Below, in pieces: positions 2,522 through 54,362 of a DNA stretch of 64,000 nt (positions are counted from its first letter, which is position 1; the number at the start of each line of letters is the position of its first letter). Position numbers and translations under genes: made by a program. The notes under the pieces are model-generated. The model made no database searches. It saw only the letters and a list, made by a program, of their open reading frames with translations, and was not told the DNA's origin. Source of the DNA: a virus (taxonomy: Duplodnaviria; Caudoviricetes). The stretch spans positions 1 to 64,000 of IMG/VR virus record IMGVR_UViG_3300035208_002958; one strand, given 5' to 3'.

Positions 2522-2986
2522 TTATTCTACCATTTCTTTAATCAACAAATAAGCCCCTACAGCATCCCAATTAGGGAACGTATCAGAACCAAACTTAATC
2601 AATTCACCCTCAAATCCATCCTGACCATTTCCGAAAGGTCGGTCATCGATCAGATAGTCTCCATGAAACAGAGACTTGTTGGGAGATAGAATAAGCTTCT
2701 CGACTACTTCCATTCCGAATTTGTCTTCCACCCACAATCGTTTTTCCATATAGCACATTGGATTGTAAACGGAAGGGGCAGTCAAAATGTATACATCGAG
2801 ATTGGGATGATTGAACAATTCCATAAACCACTTGATCGCACCCGAAAGAGGGTCGAGCTTTCGAAAAAAATCCACTTGGGATTGAGGCCACATAATTTCA
2901 GGAGTCCGCTTTAATGCAGCATGGTATGCACCACTGAAATCACATAACACATCATCCATGTCAACGTATACAATTTTCTTCTTCAT
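2522..2986 (-). CDS. 5'(3')-deoxyribonucleotidase (NT5C, HAD)
   Basis: YVDMDDVLCDF, ILTAP, EKRLWV, GDYLIDD. Confidence 0.88.
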   Translation of the reverse strand: MKKKIVYVDMDDVLCDFSGAYHAALKRTPEIMWPQSQVDFFRKLDPLSGAIKWFMELFNHPNLDVYILTAPSVYNPMCYMEKRLWVEDKFGMEVVEKLILSPNKSLFHGDYLIDDRPFGNGQDGFEGELIKFGSDTFPNWDAVGAYLLIKEMVE

Positions 2987-3020
2987 GATAATCCTAAAAA
3001 GGGTGCTGAAGCACCCATTG

Positions 3021-3212
3021 TTATAGTGTTACGAGCGTAACAGATGCTTCGTCTGGAACTTCGTCAACGAGTGGCTTTCGGTCAAACGTCAGTGTTGATG
3101 TCCCATCGGTGCCGTAGTTGTCGCCGTTGATCTTTTCGATGACATAGCGTTCACCATAAAATTCAACAGTGCTTCCTTCCTTAATCTCAGAGCCATTCTT
3201 ATCGTAGAACAT
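3021..3212 (-). CDS. Hypothetical protein
   Basis: ORF with GAGG SD; DKNG.EI.EG motif typical of small phage proteins. Confidence 0.6.
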   Translation of the reverse strand: MFYDKNGSEIKEGSTVEFYGERYVIEKINGDNYGTDGTSTLTFDRKPLVDEVPDEASVTLVTL

Positions 3213-4673: not shown

Positions 4674-5009
4674 TTAATAAACAATCTTCCAAATATCAGA
4701 CTCAAGTTCAATTTGGCTCCGATTTGCATGCATCTCACCTGTAATTCTATCAGACACGTGACTCGCCTTAAGTTTAACCAGACCTATGTTATCGATCATA
4801 GTTTCAACCGTCACATTCAAGTAGATTGCTGTATGTGAATAAACTCTGGTTAATGGAAACCCACGGGTATAACTTTCAAACAATATACTATGAATACGAT
4901 CCCTCTCATTGTCTCCGATAGAGGGAACATCGAATGCATTTCTAGCCGACGAGAAAAATATGTCAATACTTTTCTCAAACACGAAATGTTGTATCCATAG
5001 TTTCAGCAT
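4674..5009 (-). CDS. Hypothetical protein
   Basis: Coupled TAATG overlap with the upstream gene. Confidence 0.5.
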   Translation of the reverse strand: MLKLWIQHFVFEKSIDIFFSSARNAFDVPSIGDNERDRIHSILFESYTRGFPLTRVYSHTAIYLNVTVETMIDNIGLVKLKASHVSDRITGEMHANRSQIELESDIWKIVY

Positions 5010-5518
5010 TACTTGATATTCAATCTTTCACTGTCGCAGTGACTTGCGAAGAATCCCTTAGGCATTTTGAGAAGTGACAGTTCGCCAAAATCGCCTTTGA
5101 ATCCGATGGATGCAAGTGCAGTAGGGACTTCACGTTCAACCCAATCAGGTTCATGGAACATGGAGTTCTTGATTCCCCAGTCAGTAAGACGCTTCTGCCA
5201 TGTGAGAAGCTCAGCTTCATCTTTCACGGCCAGATAAATCAAGGTTCCGTTACCCCAAGTGAAAAGCTGAGCAAGATGTTCATCTGAATACAAAGTATCG
5301 GCTTCAATCGACAACGGAGTCACCCAATTACGAATTCGATCACGATTGTGGCAATCTCGATTGAAAGGGACTGTAAGCGGCTGGCTCATCACATACTGCA
5401 AAGCAGCATGACCAGCCTGAACCGCCTGATGTTCGTAAGGGATATCGGTTCTCACCAGAACAAACAGTCTGATGAAATCACCCGGATTGGAATTGTTATC
5501 TAGTACTGGATATGCCAT
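5009..5518 (-). CDS. Pth2-like peptidyl-tRNA hydrolase (phage type)
   Basis: VLVRTD....QAVQAGHA, IYL.V..E..L, F.EPD.....TA. Confidence 0.7.
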   Translation of the reverse strand: MAYPVLDNNSNPGDFIRLFVLVRTDIPYEHQAVQAGHAALQYVMSQPLTVPFNRDCHNRDRIRNWVTPLSIEADTLYSDEHLAQLFTWGNGTLIYLAVKDEAELLTWQKRLTDWGIKNSMFHEPDWVEREVPTALASIGFKGDFGELSLLKMPKGFFASHCDSERLNIK

Positions 5519-12734: not shown

Positions 12735-14044
12735 CGGAATTCGTGAGAGAAAACCGCTAGGTCTTCAGCCTAGTGGATGAATCGAACAAAATAATTTAAC
12801 TTTTTCTTGCCATTGGAATAAAAATAAACTATATTCTATAATAGAATGAAAGAAGTATTGAAGTCATATAGATATCGGATAGAACCGAATGCCGAACAGA
12901 AGATTCTGTTGAACAAGCATTTTGGTTCAGTCCGTTATGTATATAACTATTTCCTCAACGAGAGGAAGAATCAATACAGAGAAACTAAGAAATCAGATAA
13001 TTATGTAGCACAGGCTAATAAGCTAACCAAGTTGAAGAAAGAAGAATCAACCGTTTGGTTAAAAGAGATCAATTCCCAGACACTCCAGCAGACTTTGAAG
13101 AATTTGGAAGCTGCGTATCTTAACTTCTTTAGAGGAAATTCAGAGTTTCCTAGTTTCAAATCAAAAAGATCAAAGAACTCATTTCGTGTTCCTCAACACA
13201 TAACAGTTGAGGACGGAAGAATCCGAGTTCCGAAATTCAATGACGGAATCAAGTTAATCAAACATAGAGAGTTCAAAGGTGAGATTCGCCAATGCACATT
13301 CTCTAGAGATTGCAGGAATCAATACTTCGTATCAATATTAGTAGCAACCACACATGAACAATACCCACAAACAGGTAAGGCTGTGGGTATTGATTTAGGT
13401 ATTAAGGACTTCGCTATAACTAGTGATGGCATTAAATACAGGAATCATAGATATACTAAGCGATATGAAAGAGAACTGAAAGTAGCACAACAACATCTTT
13501 CTCGTAAACAAAAAGGTAGTCATCAATCTGAAAAACAAAGATTGAAGGTTGCTCGTATTCACGAGAAGATATCAAATTCACGAAAAGATAATCTTCACAA
13601 GATATCTTCCAAGCTAATTGCATCGTATGATGTGGTATGTCTGGAAGATTTGAATGTGAAAGGTATGGTGAAAAATCATAAGTTAGCTAAACACATTTCA
13701 GATTGTGGTTGGGGATTGTTTGTATCCATGTTAGAATATAAAGCTAAGTGGAATGACAAGCAGATTGTTAGAATCAATAGATTCTTCCCATCATCCAAAA
13801 CCTGTAATGAATGTGGGTGGATCAAGTCTGATTTGAAGTTAGATGATCGTGAATGGGTATGTGAATCATGTGGATGTGAACATGATCGAGATGTAAATGC
13901 TGCTAAAAACATATTAACGGAAGGTGTAAGCCTTCTCTCGTCAGGAACTGGCGAGTACACTGATGGAGATGATGTTAGACTCAGAAATGAGCAGTTGTCT
14001 GCGAAGTCAGAAGCCCCTGAGTCTTTAGCTCAGGGGTAGTTCAC
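12735..14044 (+). mobile_element. IS200/IS605-family tnpB-only element
   Basis: Left end CGGAATTCGTGAGAGAAA after TTTAT; right end hairpin ...CAGGGGTAGTTCAC; ends homologous to the 47414..49168 element. Confidence 0.88.
12846..14039 (+). CDS. tnpB: RNA-guided endonuclease TnpB
   Basis: GIDLG, EDL, CxxC/CxxC, DRDVNAA all intact. Confidence 0.95.
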   Translation: MKEVLKSYRYRIEPNAEQKILLNKHFGSVRYVYNYFLNERKNQYRETKKSDNYVAQANKLTKLKKEESTVWLKEINSQTLQQTLKNLEAAYLNFFRGNSEFPSFKSKRSKNSFRVPQHITVEDGRIRVPKFNDGIKLIKHREFKGEIRQCTFSRDCRNQYFVSILVATTHEQYPQTGKAVGIDLGIKDFAITSDGIKYRNHRYTKRYERELKVAQQHLSRKQKGSHQSEKQRLKVARIHEKISNSRKDNLHKISSKLIASYDVVCLEDLNVKGMVKNHKLAKHISDCGWGLFVSMLEYKAKWNDKQIVRINRFFPSSKTCNECGWIKSDLKLDDREWVCESCGCEHDRDVNAAKNILTEGVSLLSSGTGEYTDGDDVRLRNEQLSAKSEAPESLAQG

Positions 14045-16612: not shown

Positions 16613-17041
16613 TTACAGAAGCTCAAGCTTCCCAGTAATCGGATCAATCTCCTCGCTATATGCAGGTCCAATGGCAATACAAGTATTGGTCGGCTGTCCG
16701 TTGAACTCAGTCAGACCAGCATCGGTAATGAGAGCACAGGGGAGACCAGATTTCTTGGCCTGTTGATATAGAGCCAACAGTTCTTCCTCAGTTTCCACAC
16801 TCGCACATACCTTAGTAAACCGCCCACCCAGCCATTCTCGTAGCACTTTTCCAAGGAAAATAAACCACAGGAACTTGGTCGGCTTGAATACCATCGACAA
16901 CACTGCTGCCATAGATGCGTGAGCACCCTGAGCAACCATTTTTCCAGTACGAAGCTTCCGATTGACAATCTGTCCTTTTTCTTCAATCGGGAACTTCTTT
17001 CGCATTACGATAACTTGTTTCACATTAGTCATTTTTACCAA
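16613..17041 (-). CDS. pth2: Peptidyl-tRNA hydrolase Pth2
   Basis: KQVIVMR, GKMVAQGAHAS, DAGLTEF, T..AIGP, ID.ITG.L.LL. Confidence 0.92.
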   Translation of the reverse strand: MVKMTNVKQVIVMRKKFPIEEKGQIVNRKLRTGKMVAQGAHASMAAVLSMVFKPTKFLWFIFLGKVLREWLGGRFTKVCASVETEEELLALYQQAKKSGLPCALITDAGLTEFNGQPTNTCIAIGPAYSEEIDPITGKLELL

Positions 17042-35177: not shown

Positions 35178-35265
35178 TGCGAATGAGGGGGTTCGAACCC
35201 ATGATGGACTTGTTACAGTCAAGAGATTTAGAGTCTCCCGCCTTCGACCGCTCGGCCACATCCGC
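35178..35265 (-). tRNA. Amber suppressor tRNA, anticodon CUA, type II (long variable arm; Tyr- or Leu-like)
   Basis: GCGGATG/CATTCGC-A acceptor, TGGCCGAGCGGTCGAAGGC D arm, GGAGA-CTCTAAA-TCTCT anticodon arm, GGTTCGAACC T arm; CCA not encoded. Confidence 0.9.
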
Positions 35266-35310
35266 TTAGTATGGAGTAATATAGAAAAAAATTAGTACTT
35301 GTCAAACAAT

Positions 35311-35338
35311 AAAAAGCCCTCAATCGAGGGCTTTTTTG
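35311..35338. terminator. Bidirectional rho-independent terminator
   Basis: AAAAGCCCTC-aatc-GAGGGCTTTTT. Confidence 0.8.
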
Positions 35339-35557
35339 TTATTTGGTTTCTTCCAGTGCTGATATCAATTTGTGGATAACCTTATCGGCAAATTCTCTTG
35401 CTTCAGTACCATCTACAAAGTGATATTCACGGGGACAGCAACCATGTCGGCAGCCGTTGTCGTGTTCGATCTCGAATCTACTATCATCGATAGCTTCTAC
35501 AATCGTCTCACGGAGAAGATCTAGAAACAATTCATCGGTATTGACAGGGGAAGCCAT
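35339..35557 (-). CDS. Hypothetical protein
   Basis: TAATG coupling; followed by a terminator. Confidence 0.55.
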   Translation of the reverse strand: MASPVNTDELFLDLLRETIVEAIDDSRFEIEHDNGCRHGCCPREYHFVDGTEAREFADKVIHKLISALEETK

Positions 35558-35973
35558 TATACAACCTCCACCGAATACATGAGATCTCGATTGATCTTAC
35601 CTGTGGCAGCATCGAACGAGTCAGCCAGTTCCTTAGATCCTGTATACGATTCGATAAAAGACTTTACCAAATTCATATTGAGGTCTTCATTGGAACGCTG
35701 CTCAATCTGATCGATTGACCGACCCTTCAAAAGGGCGTAGGCAACATGCATATGTCTGCGTACATAGGTTTTATCCCATACACTAACAACCTGAGGAATT
35801 TTTTGAGTTGCTTCCCATTTATTCACAAACGCAACTAGTGCATTTGCATTCTGGGGATAGTAAGGATCGCTGCGTTGAGCATCTTTGAATACCTTGTTGT
35901 ATTCTTTGGTGTATTCAGCGATGAGCTTGATGTCGCTCTTGAAATTTTCGATTTCAGTGTGTTTCGTATTCAT
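35557..35973 (-). CDS. Phage protein with RxxHxAYxLLxG motif; SD occluded by a hairpin
   Basis: RHMHVAYALLKGRSIDQIE; TAAGGAG SD. Confidence 0.65.
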   Translation of the reverse strand: MNTKHTEIENFKSDIKLIAEYTKEYNKVFKDAQRSDPYYPQNANALVAFVNKWEATQKIPQVVSVWDKTYVRRHMHVAYALLKGRSIDQIEQRSNEDLNMNLVKSFIESYTGSKELADSFDAATGKINRDLMYSVEVV

Positions 35974-35982
35974 TTTTATTTT

Positions 35983-36090
35983 CTCCTTAATTAGTTCGAA
36001 ACATTTTGATTGAAATAGTGTGTAACCGTCAATCAGACTAATTTAAGGAGGTCGTGCGTGGTATACCTAGTAACTCATGGTATTTCCTTT
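35983..36090 (-). promoter_or_regulatory. Translational attenuator: uORF MSY-TAG-VYHARPP-TAA (36078..36043) plus SD-sequestering hairpin
   Basis: CTCCTTAAATTAGT (36050..36037) pairs with ACTAATTAAGGAG (35995..35983); inner stem TGATTGA/TCAATCA; uORF has an AAGGA SD. Confidence 0.7.
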
Positions 36091-36118
36091 TGTTAAAATT
36101 TCGTGTTCTTCAATACCT

Positions 36119-36146
36119 AATATAGATAAAAAAGAACATCTGTCAA
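36119..36146 (-). promoter_or_regulatory. Representative early/middle promoter TTGACA-N16-TATATT
   Basis: Same motif at 1237, 2490, 10883, 17219, 20301, 29505, 35278, 45593, 46367, 54373 (-) and 54703, 55816, 58562 (+). Confidence 0.85.
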
Positions 36147-37662: not shown

Positions 37663-37877
37663 CCATTTCTCCTATGCATTTCCCGTGGCCGATCCACCTA
37701 GGTGAATCCCTGCGACAATATGTACCACGTGTCTATACATCATAGTTATTCCAATCTGCAATATGCTTAATGTCAGCAGTGAATTGAAATATAGAAAGAA
37801 AATGAATTTTGTAAAGCATCGATATGCAACAAAATGGGCGAATGTCCATTTCTGTGCTAAAATAGCCACTTTTTTGA

Positions 37878-38208: not shown

Positions 38209-38670
38209 TCACTTAATCTTTTTTGGTTCAACTGCAATGTAATTGAGCTGATAGTCAGGAGAAATTACACCACTTGGGTCCATGACACCATACCCGACAG
38301 GGAAAAACTCTACCGAATTCAACCCATTCGTCTGCAAGATTCCAGCAAGCTTTCTACCATCTCGGTTCAATCGTGTCTGACAATGGATGACTAGTTTGTT
38401 ACCCACGATCTCGCCGCTGATTACATCGGCCATTACTTTCTGATTCCACGCTTCAGCAATAGAAACATTCTTAGCCTTTCGTTCGACTGGATTCATTTCC
38501 TGTACAATGATTCTTGGCTTAACAGTAAACCGTTCAACTAACCGTCTAATGATATCAATTGTGTAGATTTCACCATTGGGAACCGTTGGCATTCCGGCAA
38601 CCATCAGTACAGCCGAGAACTCATATTTTTCTTCTTTCGGATTAGTATTCGTAGTCATAGAGAGTTCCAT
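38209..38670 (-). CDS. Hypothetical protein
   Basis: ORF in operon; NG.IY motif. Confidence 0.55.
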   Translation of the reverse strand: MELSMTTNTNPKEEKYEFSAVLMVAGMPTVPNGEIYTIDIIRRLVERFTVKPRIIVQEMNPVERKAKNVSIAEAWNQKVMADVISGEIVGNKLVIHCQTRLNRDGRKLAGILQTNGLNSVEFFPVGYGVMDPSGVISPDYQLNYIAVEPKKIK

Positions 38671-39382
38671 TATTCATTTTATCATTGAATCGTCTCAGTC
38701 TATCAATAGACCTATCGATCATCTTTCGAATACGAACTGTGTTGACACCTGTCTTCTGAGAAATTTCTTTGAGTGTATGTTTACGATACACCATGAACAT
38801 ATTCAGATCTTCTAGTGCTCGATCTGTCGTGCTGGGATGCATCTTAAATTCTTCCAGAATCTCATCAAGTTCATTTACAGCCGAATCGTGCTCAGGTTGG
38901 ACAACCGCATGAGCATCATCGCAGTGTTGATGTTCAGTGAAATCATTGATGTCAGTATATTCGTACTTCATTGGTTCATTTTCAACCTCAGAACCGTCAC
39001 TATCTACCTTCTTGACTACTTTCTTTTTCATCACTGGGATATGAATCAGATCATGATGGTAGTTATACCAGTTCTGTAGTAGACCTCGAATCGTCTGTAC
39101 AGCGTAATGGTAGAATGGCATGCCCACATCGGGATCGAATGTCTCAGTGGCTTTACATAGCCCCTCGTAGACAAATGACATGATAGACCCCAACTCTTGG
39201 TTGTAGTTATATTGATGATAAATCATGTATACGAGTCTGGCATTATTTTTCAATAATCGTTCTAGATTTTTCTGCTTCTGATCCGCTTTATTTGGATCTT
39301 GAATATCACGAACGAGACGGTCATTGATTTCCGCACCATTGGCAGGAAATGGATTATTCTTGATAAATTCTTCGGGTGTCAT
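38642..39382 (-). CDS. Sigma70-family RNA polymerase sigma factor
   Basis: Region 2 N.RLV...GL..A.E.FDP..G..F..YA...IR; region 4 TLKEIS...GV...RIR.....L. Confidence 0.85.
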   Translation of the reverse strand: MTPEEFIKNNPFPANGAEINDRLVRDIQDPNKADQKQKNLERLLKNNARLVYMIYHQYNYNQELGSIMSFVYEGLCKATETFDPDVGMPFYHYAVQTIRGLLQNWYNYHHDLIHIPVMKKKVVKKVDSDGSEVENEPMKYEYTDINDFTEHQHCDDAHAVVQPEHDSAVNELDEILEEFKMHPSTTDRALEDLNMFMVYRKHTLKEISQKTGVNTVRIRKMIDRSIDRLRRFNDKMNNGTLYDYEY

Positions 39383-39466
39383 CCTATACTCAATCCGGCT
39401 TCGAAACCGGATTAATCTTACCTATAAGGTACTATATGGATGACTCCAATGCCAATGTGAATATAA

Positions 39467-39664
39467 CTATTTGTTAATCTTTTCTATTTTAGGTGACATC
39501 CAAATATCCCTGAATGCAAGCAAATACTCAACCTGTTTATGAAGATCCTCATCGGTTACACCATTTCCGACCTCGATTAACGTATCAAGTACAGTTTCAA
39601 TTATCAGTACCGCATCTGCATCACTTAATTTACCAGAAGCAATCGCTGTATCAATGTCATTCAT
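39467..39664 (-). CDS. Hypothetical protein (TAG stop)
   Basis: ORF with AGGA SD overlapping the upstream TAG. Confidence 0.5.
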   Translation of the reverse strand: MNDIDTAIASGKLSDADAVLIIETVLDTLIEVGNGVTDEDLHKQVEYLLAFRDIWMSPKIEKINK

Positions 39665-39673
39665 GATATAATC

Positions 39674-39934
39674 CTATTTCTTAATCTGTTTCAATATTTC
39701 GGGTGGTAAAGAACGCTCAAGAGCTTGGCGACGACGAATCCAGTAATCGGTTATTTTTCGAAGTGCCATTCGATCATTGAACAGAACTGCATCACCCTTC
39801 ATTGTGCTCATTACTTCTTTATACTGAGCATTGCATAATTCCCACTCACCACGGAGTCGGTCAACATTTCCATAGAAATCGTTGTAAGCCTGACGCATCT
39901 CAGGAGTCATTGTATCTTTCTTAGTAGTAGCCAT
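39674..39934 (-). CDS. Hypothetical protein (TAG stop)
   Basis: Likely start MATTKK. Confidence 0.55.
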   Translation of the reverse strand: MATTKKDTMTPEMRQAYNDFYGNVDRLRGEWELCNAQYKEVMSTMKGDAVLFNDRMALRKITDYWIRRRQALERSLPPEILKQIKK

Positions 39935-39967
39935 ATAGTCAACACCTATCTGTGCTAACAATATATG

Positions 39968-40192
39968 CTAATCATTGATGGGAATTGACGCTAAAACCTC
40001 ATCGCACATGCAGATGGTATTGTAGTCTTTCAATGCAGCCTCAGGTGATTCGTAGGTACAATTGGATGCTATCGATCCAGCGTAATCCCCTGTATTCAGT
40101 TTTACTTCCCAGATATATCGGGTCTCTATTTTCAGAGGAGTACCCATTATTTTTGCATGTATGTGTAGTTGTGCCATATTTATCTCAAACAA
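39968..40192 (-). CDS. Hypothetical protein (TAG stop)
   Basis: ORF in operon. Confidence 0.45.
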   Translation of the reverse strand: MFEINMAQLHIHAKIMGTPLKIETRYIWEVKLNTGDYAGSIASNCTYESPEAALKDYNTICMCDEVLASIPIND

Positions 40193-47418: not shown

Positions 47419-48666
47419 CTACCCCTGAGCTAAAGACTCAGGGGCTTCAAATGCCATCACTGACATTCTTTCTGCACTGGTTGCTAACGCAATCCCATGT
47501 CTTGCAGACTTTGATTTCTGGGTGTTCCTATCTGACCCAGTATTTTTATTTACAAACGAGAAATCTCTTATATTGATAGCAGCATTTACATCCCTATCAT
47601 GGTTCTCACCACAAGCAGGACATATCCATGCTCTATCTTTCAGTGTCAAATCGTGTTTGATATACCCACAGTTGGAACAGGTCTTTGAGCTGGGTTCAAA
47701 TCTACCAATGGTAACGATGTTACTTCCATACCAATCGCTTTTGTAGCGAAGAAATTGGAAGAACATTCCCCAACCAGCATCTCCAATGTGTTTACTCAAT
47801 TTACGATTCTTCATCATTCCTTTTACATTCAAGTCTTCTATACAGATCGTTTGGTTCTCACGGATCAGTCGTGTAGTGACTTTATGTAAAAAATCTTTTC
47901 TCTGGTTAGCTACATGCTCATGGAGCAACTGTAGCTTCAGTTTTTGTTTCTCAGCGTTCTTAGATAGTGGATCGCCTTTCTTCTTCGATTTGATTTTTCT
48001 CGAAAAGGAACGTTGGATCGAACTCAATCTACGCTGACAAGTAACAAAATATCTTGGGTTGGATATCTCCTCACCTTCGCTTGTCACAGCGAATGACTTG
48101 ATACCAACATCTATTCCTATCGATGTTTCTTTTCTTATTTCTGGCTTTGATGGCAGTTCTTTACCATCTTCAACTAAAATGGTTACATAGTAACTACCAG
48201 CGTTAGAACGCTTGATATGACATGTACGGATCTCACCTTCAAATTTACGATGAAATACAGTCATGATTGGTTCTTTGAACTTTGGTAGTTCTATTTCTGA
48301 TTTGGAAAAATCAACAGTCAGATTTTTAGGTATCTCAAATGATTGTTTCGATTTACGGTTTTTGAACTTGGGAAACCCACCAGATTTGGTGAAAAACTTA
48401 TTATATGCAGTATCTAGGTGGATAAGTACAGCTTGTAGCGATTGTGAATTTACTTCTTTCAACCACTCAGTCGATTCCTGTTTCTTCAATACAGGAATCT
48501 CAGCCTGAATATCATACCTAGATAATGCACCACTTGTCTGCTTATAGTGTGCAATTTTACGAGAAAGAGCATAGTTATACATCCAACGACAATGACCAAA
48601 GTGCTTCGCTAAAAGCGACTTCTGCTCATCAGTTGGGTATATTCTGTATTCGTATGTCTTTTTCAT
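47419..48666 (-). CDS. tnpB: RNA-guided endonuclease TnpB
   Basis: GIDVG, EDL, CxxC pairs, DRDVNAA intact. Confidence 0.95.
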   Translation of the reverse strand: MKKTYEYRIYPTDEQKSLLAKHFGHCRWMYNYALSRKIAHYKQTSGALSRYDIQAEIPVLKKQESTEWLKEVNSQSLQAVLIHLDTAYNKFFTKSGGFPKFKNRKSKQSFEIPKNLTVDFSKSEIELPKFKEPIMTVFHRKFEGEIRTCHIKRSNAGSYYVTILVEDGKELPSKPEIRKETSIGIDVGIKSFAVTSEGEEISNPRYFVTCQRRLSSIQRSFSRKIKSKKKGDPLSKNAEKQKLKLQLLHEHVANQRKDFLHKVTTRLIRENQTICIEDLNVKGMMKNRKLSKHIGDAGWGMFFQFLRYKSDWYGSNIVTIGRFEPSSKTCSNCGYIKHDLTLKDRAWICPACGENHDRDVNAAINIRDFSFVNKNTGSDRNTQKSKSARHGIALATSAERMSVMAFEAPESLAQG

Positions 48667-54034: not shown

Positions 54035-54362
54035 TGGAGAAGCGGGGATTCGAACCCCGGTCCACAGTAACCGTCCATATGACCTCGTTACGACCATTTT
54101 GACATTTTAGTTTCCGTTTCTGGCAAGTCACTAGCCATCTCTGAGTCCTAAATCGTTATCCAGCCAAGACCATCACTGACAACGTTTTCTGTCTTACGAC
54201 CCCGACACAGACCCGACAGACTGTCTGATTGGGGAGCTACTTAAGCAGCCATTGCAAAATTGGATTCTGCATTTGTGTTTGTTTCCGCTTTTTAAAGAGG
54301 CCAACGGACACCTCTAGTCGCAGTCGATACTTCTTGTCCCATGTCGAAACCAAAGCATCCCC
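54035..54362 (-). ncRNA. ssrA: tmRNA; encoded tag AESNFAMAA* at 54270..54241
   Basis: 5' GGGGATG...GGTTTCGAC; 3' GGGGTTCGAATCCCC..CTTCTCCA T arm with G3:U pair; tag ends AA*; promoter 54373..54400 and terminator ~54001..54030. Confidence 0.93.

Follow-up and report, generated by a model that had tools for sequence, protein, structure and literature searches.

The question raised by this locus is what an amber codon in the frame of a leader is for when a tRNA gene with the matching anticodon follows close behind. The locus lies in the first 64 kb (hereafter the window, the whole stretch of DNA that was analysed) of the 101,360-bp IMG/VR virus record IMGVR_UViG_3300035208_002958, where a short leader open reading frame (ORF) is cut by a TAG and ends on one arm of a hairpin predicted to bury the Shine-Dalgarno (SD) sequence of the next gene, and where the next transcription unit begins with a gene for a tRNA with the anticodon CUA, tRNA(CUA). 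An earlier note on this DNA had proposed that termination at the TAG leaves the hairpin largely closed, while amber readthrough parks a ribosome on it and turns on the downstream genes. Comparison with about 30 further homologous loci of the same plan, down to about 25% protein identity, points in this direction, and the leader probably serves as a translational switch, with the decoding of UAG as sense as the state that it reports.

Anatomy and conservation of the leader

All features of the leader locus lie on the minus strand. A sigma-70-type promoter (36146-36119; TTGACA at 36146-36141, a 16-nt spacer and TATATT at 36124-36119, with 11 of 12 consensus matches) precedes a mini-ORF with an SD sequence of its own, AAGGA (36089-36085), which is separated by 6 nt from the ATG at 36078. 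The mini-ORF reads ATG AGT TAC and then the in-frame amber TAG (36078-36067), the TAG being codon 4 (36069-36067), and the same frame continues as GTA TAC CAC GCA CGA CCT CCT TAA (V-Y-H-A-R-P-P-stop; 36066-36043). Further downstream are the two genes that the leader would gate, the first encoding 138 amino acids (35973-35557, ATG at 35973, SD TAAGGAG) and the second a Cys-containing protein of 72 amino acids (35557-35339), whose start overlaps the stop of the first. The operon ends at an intrinsic terminator (35336-35311; a T run behind an 11-bp stem), which is also present in the related locus L002. Behind it, a second promoter (35305-35278; again TTGACA, 16 nt and TATATT, 11 of 12 consensus matches) serves the tRNA(CUA) gene (35265-35178), which was detected by ARAGORN and by the Rfam tRNA model RF00005 (51.4 bits) and encodes an 88-nt tRNA of class II, with a long variable arm. 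Genes for a sigma factor, an SLT transglycosylase and a DHFR are located upstream of the leader. The promoter, the uORF with its internal TAG and V-Y-H-A-R-P-P-stop continuation, the Pro-Pro-stop codons on the anti-SD arm (in the predicted fold) and the tRNA(CUA) at the head of the next unit are thus all as the earlier note had described them.

An SD-equipped mini-ORF with an internal stop, followed after 4-8 codons by a second stop on an anti-SD arm and then by a ribosome-binding site, was found as a combination only once when both strands of the 101-kb genome were scanned, and this composite and its conservation exceed chance. Contigs assembled in three other studies, on landfill and other metagenomes, carry the leader without any difference, so the TAG is real and not a sequencing error; these identical assemblies, together with the TAG in homologous leaders, also rule out a private nonsense mutation, the other explanation of this kind that the earlier note had named.

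Close homologs of the 138-amino-acid protein (72, 73, 61 and 47% identity) are encoded in an invariable gene order of SLT, DHFR, leader, 138-amino-acid gene and 72-amino-acid gene. The leader peptide is MSY-TAG-VYHARPP-TAA in the window and in loci L002, L003 and L025, MSY-TAG-VYNIRPP in L001, MKY-TAG-VHKARPP in L004, MRKL-TAG-VLK(N)NRPP in L005-L009, L035 and L042, MNNY-TAG-VQLAQPP in L041 and MM-TAG-VFNNRPP in L043 and L050. Before the TAG, these close relatives differ in length only by whole codons; the SD sequence of the mini-ORF, AAAGGA, is invariant among them, and promoter hexamers and spacing are identical in L001-L003 and L041-L044.

More distant loci were collected by a profile search (68 family members), from the contexts of the family members P0012, P0013 and P0016, and as 25 IMG/VR loci through the family alignment. 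Their leaders cannot be aligned yet have the same plan, which is a short ORF preceded by an SD-like motif and cut by TAG, 4-9 further codons in frame, mostly ending in [K/R]-Pro-Pro-stop, and a second stop on the anti-SD arm. Examples (a hyphen marking the in-frame stop, and each peptide ending at a second one) are MY-VLTILKPP, MR-INRPP, MS-ITGPP, MH-VNRPP, MKHT-VFYLIPP, MT-VRNVLKPP, MS-VYNKPP, MN-VTKPP, MT-VSKPP, MT-KFKPP, (GTG)R-IRKPP, MER-IPKKPP, MT-SARGP, MENSGFT-NNRSP and MNY-INTS. The TAG is present in every homologous leader, including those of the eight lineages found by protein and, in some form, of 24 of the 25 IMG/VR loci; in none of these leaders is it replaced by a sense codon. 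The mini-ORF before the TAG spans 1-7 codons and the stretch behind it 4-9 codons, always in frame.

Some homologs depart from the plan in their construction. L067 has no hairpin leader; here the TAG is codon 3 of the homolog gene itself (ATG ACG TAG GTG; 2907-3040), the frame past it continues into the conserved N-terminal helix, and a tRNA(CUA) gene lies 448 nt downstream. L055 (620-740) has no mini-ORF start; a full-length upstream gene ends in TAG GGC TAC GCA TAG and continues in frame as HKIHKPP-TAA onto the anti-SD CCTCCTTAA, an arrangement that would couple the family gene to readthrough of its neighbour's stop codon. The only leaderless homolog, L054, is also without a tRNA(CUA) gene in its 6.2 kb. 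Since these different implementations share a logic of amber-dependent expression, a purely structural RNA element is disfavoured.

Scans of IMG/VR and metagenome contigs with DNA patterns of the anti-SD core yielded 30 stretches, of which L025 and L035 alone are true relatives; the others were discarded as chance or 16S-like matches. The GenBank phages contained no match to the 3-kb region at the DNA level or to five family members at the protein level, and so no cultured model phage was found.

Codons beyond the TAG, the SD hairpin and the tRNA

Regarding the codons beyond the TAG, Pro-Pro-stop ends 21 of the 26 non-identical leaders and is preceded by Arg or Lys in 18 of these 21. The residues are kept with varied codons: Pro is encoded by CCT, CCC, CCG and CCA and Arg by CGA, CGC, AGA and AGG across leaders, and even among close relatives the Arg codon alternates between CGA and CGC. 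The RPP-stop motif named in the earlier note therefore needs to be widened, as Pro-Pro-stop is retained and the residue before it is Arg or Lys; as its consensus the family has [K/R]-P-P-stop, a few leaders end in R-G-P or R-S-P instead, and the window has A-R-P-P-stop. Base pairing cannot explain Pro-Pro, because it is retained in seven leaders whose anti-SD is located entirely beyond the stop (L053, L060, L066, L068, L069, L073 and L074). There is no in-frame start codon after the TAG, so ribosomes could reach these codons only by reading through it. The post-TAG codons are constrained at the amino-acid level; this pattern points to peptide- or decoding-level selection, and the codons look translated. 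A passage in PMC7246954, citing Hayes 2002 and Pierson 2016, describes peptide release after a C-terminal Pro as inefficient or slow.

The hairpin (36050-35983) was predicted to pair CTCCTTAAATTAGT of the 5' (anti-SD) arm (36050-36037) with ACTAATTAAGGAG of the 3' arm (35995-35983), with one bulged A. The 3' arm contains the SD AAGGAG of the 138-amino-acid gene (35988-35983), and an inner stem, CTGATTGA/TCAATCA (36036-36029 / 36013-36007), lengthens the hairpin within the outer stem. The last codons of the mini-ORF (Arg-Pro-Pro-TAA) are part of the anti-SD arm. Thus, as in leader-peptide attenuators, the regulated SD is predicted to pair with a segment in or beside the leader ORF, CTCCTTAA with TTAAGGAG. 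The compensatory changes that would be expected of a conserved stem are present (TTAGT/ACTAA versus TTGGT/ACCAA), an insertion on the 3' side eliminates the bulge in L004, and L043 has an inner stem of wholly different sequence, GTTTGTTTT/AAAACAAAAC, that is nevertheless paired; the RNAalifold and alignment evidence concerns the outer-stem pairs only, with the L035 row set aside. As a separate observation, a weak 5-bp stem, AUACC/GGUAU (36090-36060), can enclose the mini-ORF start and pairs with the G of the TAG, and L004 retains it with altered letters (AUGACC/GGUACAU).

The position of the hairpin relative to the two stops is similarly regular among the 26 leaders. Measured from the first base of each stop codon, the anti-SD starts at least 18 nt beyond the TAG in 24 leaders (mode +19) and ends 0-14 nt beyond the second stop in 25; the one leader outside the latter range is L063, in which a second in-frame TAG is followed by VFKPP-TAA. 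According to ribosome footprints, the former distance is just past the reach of a ribosome with the TAG in its A site, and the latter is within the reach of a ribosome terminating at the second stop.

The gene is linked to tRNA(CUA) across the family, as the earlier note had suggested should be looked for among homologs of the RxxHxAYxLLxG protein, where the uORF, the TAG, Pro-Pro-stop, the SD hairpin and the tRNA indeed occur together. A tRNA(CUA) gene is nearby in 23 of the 25 IMG/VR loci, mostly 20-900 nt downstream, and each of the loci found by protein that is long enough to contain one has it close to the gene and in the same orientation (the window, L025, L001, L002, L004, L006, L009, L041, L043, L044, L045 and L047). 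In L044, L047 and L073 it lies only 10-21 nt past the operon and so is probably co-transcribed with it. By comparison, 28 unrelated control loci (218 kb) contained no tRNA of any kind, and the tRNA(CUA) of the record is its sole tRNA in 101 kb.

The tRNA(CUA) genes fall into two non-homologous classes, one of 72-78 nt (29 genes) and one of 86-90 nt (six genes and that of the window), with an anticodon loop, CUCUAAA, that does not vary in either. L002 has a leader nearly identical to that of the window, and a class I tRNA(CUA) of 74 nt replaces the class II tRNA behind an equivalent promoter. On this evidence, it is the anticodon and not the tRNA that is conserved. The cloverleaf and CUA anticodon are those of an amber suppressor tRNA, and suppressor activity is predicted from them. 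L002 (4632-7709) also differs from the window by two reverse-strand genes (379 and 564 amino acids) inserted after the operon terminator.

A candidate amber-gated switch and its alternatives

The proposed switch would work as follows. Ribosomes would initiate at the SD-equipped mini-ORF and, when release factor 1 (RF1) terminates translation at the TAG in codon 4, would leave about 19 nt before the anti-SD arm, so that TAAGGAG would stay paired and the genes for the 138- and 72-amino-acid proteins would remain untranslated. If the phage tRNA(CUA) decodes the TAG instead, seven more codons (V-Y-H-A-R-P-P) would be read and the ribosome would come to stand on the TAA within the anti-SD arm, where it would probably be slow owing to Pro-Pro-stop; the stem would melt and the SD would be freed for a second ribosome. 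The output of the two genes would then follow suppressor activity, that is, the competition of tRNA(CUA) with RF1. Stalling is plausible, but the logic of the switch would work without it, and one leader ends in T-S-stop.

Several observations weigh against such a switch or against parts of it. The window hairpin alone is not significant, given that its fold of -22.2 kcal/mol is unremarkable (z -1.7; 10 of 200 shuffles were equally stable) and that SD pairing is common (43 of 64) when control genes from the same genome are folded to minimum energy. In the close lineages CCTCC is also forced by anti-SD pairing, many loci are of common ancestry and their counts overstate the number of independent events, and the leader and tRNA promoters are equivalent and both of early type, which clouds the timing logic of the switch. 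The second stop of L064 is also a TAG, and the leader of L046 has no Pro-Pro, so that stalling would not be universal.

Regarding the rest of the genome, CheckV estimates the record to be 27% complete; it is most likely from a jumbo phage, and one homolog of the 138-amino-acid protein sits on a 457-kb contig. Reading TAG through changes the coding density of the 101 kb from 92% (code 11) to 92.6% and hardly alters the ORF picture, in which TAG terminates 16 of 116 crude ORFs. Genome-wide recoding of TAG (code 15) is ruled out for these 101 kb by the coding density and the ordinary TAG stops; the earlier note's view that the genome is not recoded as a whole thus holds for this part and is limited to it, as it covers only about 27% of the genome. 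Across the whole record, an in-frame continuation of at least 60 codons follows 5 of 17 TAG-ended ORFs and 8 of 103 TAA- or TGA-ended ORFs, an example being 37672-37869, which runs into the SLT gene; the excess may represent programmed readthrough fusions or chance. Upstream of the sigma-factor gene (38642-40192, minus strand), three small TAG-ended ORFs are each in frame with the next ORF; at the same site L001 and L002 retain TAG-ended in-frame small ORFs, the last of which ends in TAG TAA, and L004 has TAA. Two IS605-type TnpB genes (12846-14039, plus strand; 47419-48666, minus strand) share the end context CAGGGG TAG TTCAC; readthrough of this TAG into a Zn-finger extension was considered and dropped, both TnpB proteins being domain-complete before it. 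The phage also has a tmRNA gene (54035-54362, minus strand) with the tag peptide AESNFAMAA, which could matter for readthrough or for ribosomes stalled at Pro-Pro-stop.

The alternative that survives best, although unlikely, is that the input is RF1 or termination status, in which case depletion or inhibition of RF1, or competition with it, late in infection would let ribosomes pass the TAG and the tRNA(CUA) would serve other TAGs. The leader geometry suits either input, the other 73% of the genome leaves room for recoded late genes, and both the more frequent long continuations of TAG-ended ORFs and the ORFs upstream of the sigma-factor gene that are split only by TAG would be in keeping with this. 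The linkage of tRNA(CUA) to the leader, as close as 10-21 nt behind the operon, argues for the tRNA as the input instead; in addition, no release factor gene or domain resembling one was found in the 101 kb, and UAG readthrough without a cognate tRNA is normally very low.

It is rather improbable that the mini-ORF simply stops at the TAG without readthrough and belongs to an RNA element, for instance a site bound by a protein or RNase, a standby site or a stabilising mini-ORF like the lambda bar minigenes, while the in-frame second stop and the proximity of tRNA(CUA) reflect shared ancestry. In lambda, minigenes of 2-4 codons with an SD load peptidyl-tRNA, which would fit the link of the family to PTH2-like hydrolases (see below), and the 5-bp stem that can enclose the mini-ORF and the CCTCCTTAA core that the close lineages have in common by descent are equally compatible with this explanation. 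It does not account for the retention of Pro-Pro-stop and the preceding basic residue with varied codons and outside the stem, for the frame being kept over spacings of 4-9 codons, for the TAG inside a protein-coding gene in L067 or for the two TAGs before the PP-stop in L063 and L055, and the leader matches no known Rfam family. Very improbable is a T-box-like element, in which the leader UAG would pair with the CUA anticodon of charged or uncharged tRNA to control SD sequestration without translation: the codon and anticodon are complementary and translational T-boxes acting through SD sequestration exist in Actinobacteria, but an SD and an in-frame start always precede the TAG at distances that vary in multiples of three, the TAG 9 nt past the ATG leaves no room for Stem I with its specifier loop or for a discriminator, and no Rfam match was obtained on the leader at E-values up to 5.

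The putatively gated proteins and known leader-peptide systems

The 138-amino-acid protein has the motif RRHxHVAYALLKGRxxxQIE, and 68 matches were obtained with its profile hidden Markov model. It has no Pfam or PHROG family, and no informative relative came from a PDB profile search, from Foldseek against PDB, from VIA-align wide or from the ESM Atlas; the AlphaFold2 model is all-helical (pLDDT 85) and has no fold match in PDB. The 72-amino-acid protein similarly has no family in Pfam or PHROGs, and it is a conserved partner in L001, L002, L004, L006, L009 and L043.

Three family members (P0012, P0022 and P0027) carry a C-terminal PTH2-like domain (PF01981, E-values of 1e-4 to 6e-4, which lie at the cut-off or narrowly below it), and a PTH2-like gene comes next in L046 and L047. 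The window itself encodes, on the minus strand, a divergent PTH2-like protein homologous to the fused domain (5009-5518; 33% identity to P0012, E-value 1e-19) and a bona fide PTH2 (16613-17041; E-value 9e-29). The predicted complex of the 138-amino-acid protein with the divergent PTH2-like protein scored 0.00, which speaks neither for nor against binding. These associations suggest that the family is tied to tRNA ester chemistry, a tie that does not fix its function. Because relatives are fused or adjacent to PTH2-like domains, the suppressor tRNA or the products of suppression may be the targets of the gated proteins, and it is a conjecture that they provide feedback on suppression or clean up its by-products.

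The leader resembles several known systems in part. As in leader-peptide translational attenuators, its ORF has its own ribosome-binding site (AAGGA, 6 nt, ATG), which is conserved in relatives. The gene for release factor 2, prfB, contains an autoregulatory +1 frameshift site in which an early in-frame stop acts as the sensor through competition of a release factor with recoding, as would be the case in the leader; unlike in prfB, the recoding would be cognate decoding by a dedicated tRNA, the sensor stands apart from the coding sequence in a leader of its own, and no release factor is among the regulated products. Leader peptides such as trpL and hisL attenuate amino-acid operons. In these and in pheL (PMC3082878), special codons report on one tRNA species and set downstream expression, as is proposed here; the proposed switch differs in that it would unmask an SD and not terminate transcription, in that its reporter codon is a stop, and in that absence of the tRNA would lead to termination and not to stalling, while its presence would turn the genes on.

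Arrest-peptide SD switches (ErmCL/ermC, SecM/secA and MifM/yidC2, as well as ApcA, ApdA and ApdP; PMC7897499) have in common with the leader a short uORF ending on the 5' arm of an SD-hiding hairpin and a Pro-rich C-terminal motif after Arg or Lys, and in the leader, too, a paused ribosome would open the stem. The input would differ, being UAG decoding by a suppressor tRNA and not an antibiotic or secretion force, and the full peptide would be only about 11 residues long with the pause at or next to termination. Motifs of the type R-A-P-G/P (Arg-x-Pro-Pro/Gly) arrest ribosomes, and near the C-terminus of ApcA, ApdA and ApdP such a motif is essential for arrest (PMC7897499), with RAGP as the counterpart in SecM; the A-R-P-P-stop of the window is a resemblance only. 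Nor does the leader appear to monitor export as SecM, ApcA, ApdA and ApdP do upstream of Sec or YidC genes, as neither the 138- nor the 72-amino-acid protein matched a Sec or YidC family in Pfam or PHROGs.

The same logic, in which a target is on only if a tRNA(CUA) passes UAG, has been engineered with TAG codons in leaders and unnatural amino acids (PMC6412442); those synthetic switches work at the level of transcription, by way of Rho and a rut site in the tna leader, whereas the present one is natural and phage-borne and would act through an SD hairpin. In code-15 phages (10.1101/2021.08.26.457843; PMC9523058), a phage tRNA(CUA) has similarly been proposed to tie the translation of selected genes to a shift in decoding during infection. 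In the 101 kb analysed here, a regulatory leader is the one clear target, in place of in-frame TAGs spread through structural and lysis genes. A full-text literature search found no published description of a natural amber-gated leader, and what would be new is a natural nonsense-suppression input to the known class of leader-peptide SD switches.

Standard-code phages are often annotated with suppressor tRNAs that have no known target; in the genome note of phage Summit, for example, the possible target genes of the suppressor tRNA were not identified (PMC9022506). A conserved readthrough leader would give such tRNAs a concrete job, and nonsense suppression would join the known inputs of leader-peptide switches. 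The design also defines a protein family that is tightly tied to tRNA(CUA) and partly to PTH2-like hydrolases, and the function of this family would be a direct route to how phages control stop-codon readthrough or profit from it. It has about an even chance of being true that phages of many lineages carry a self-contained sensor of decoding state, in which their own suppressor tRNA must decode the in-frame UAG of a leader peptide before a pause at Pro-Pro-stop unmasks the SD of a dedicated, often PTH2-linked family, and that this family may tune suppression or clean up after it. If so, controlled nonsense suppression in standard-code cells would have a feedback circuit, and orphan suppressor tRNAs of phages would have their first natural target.

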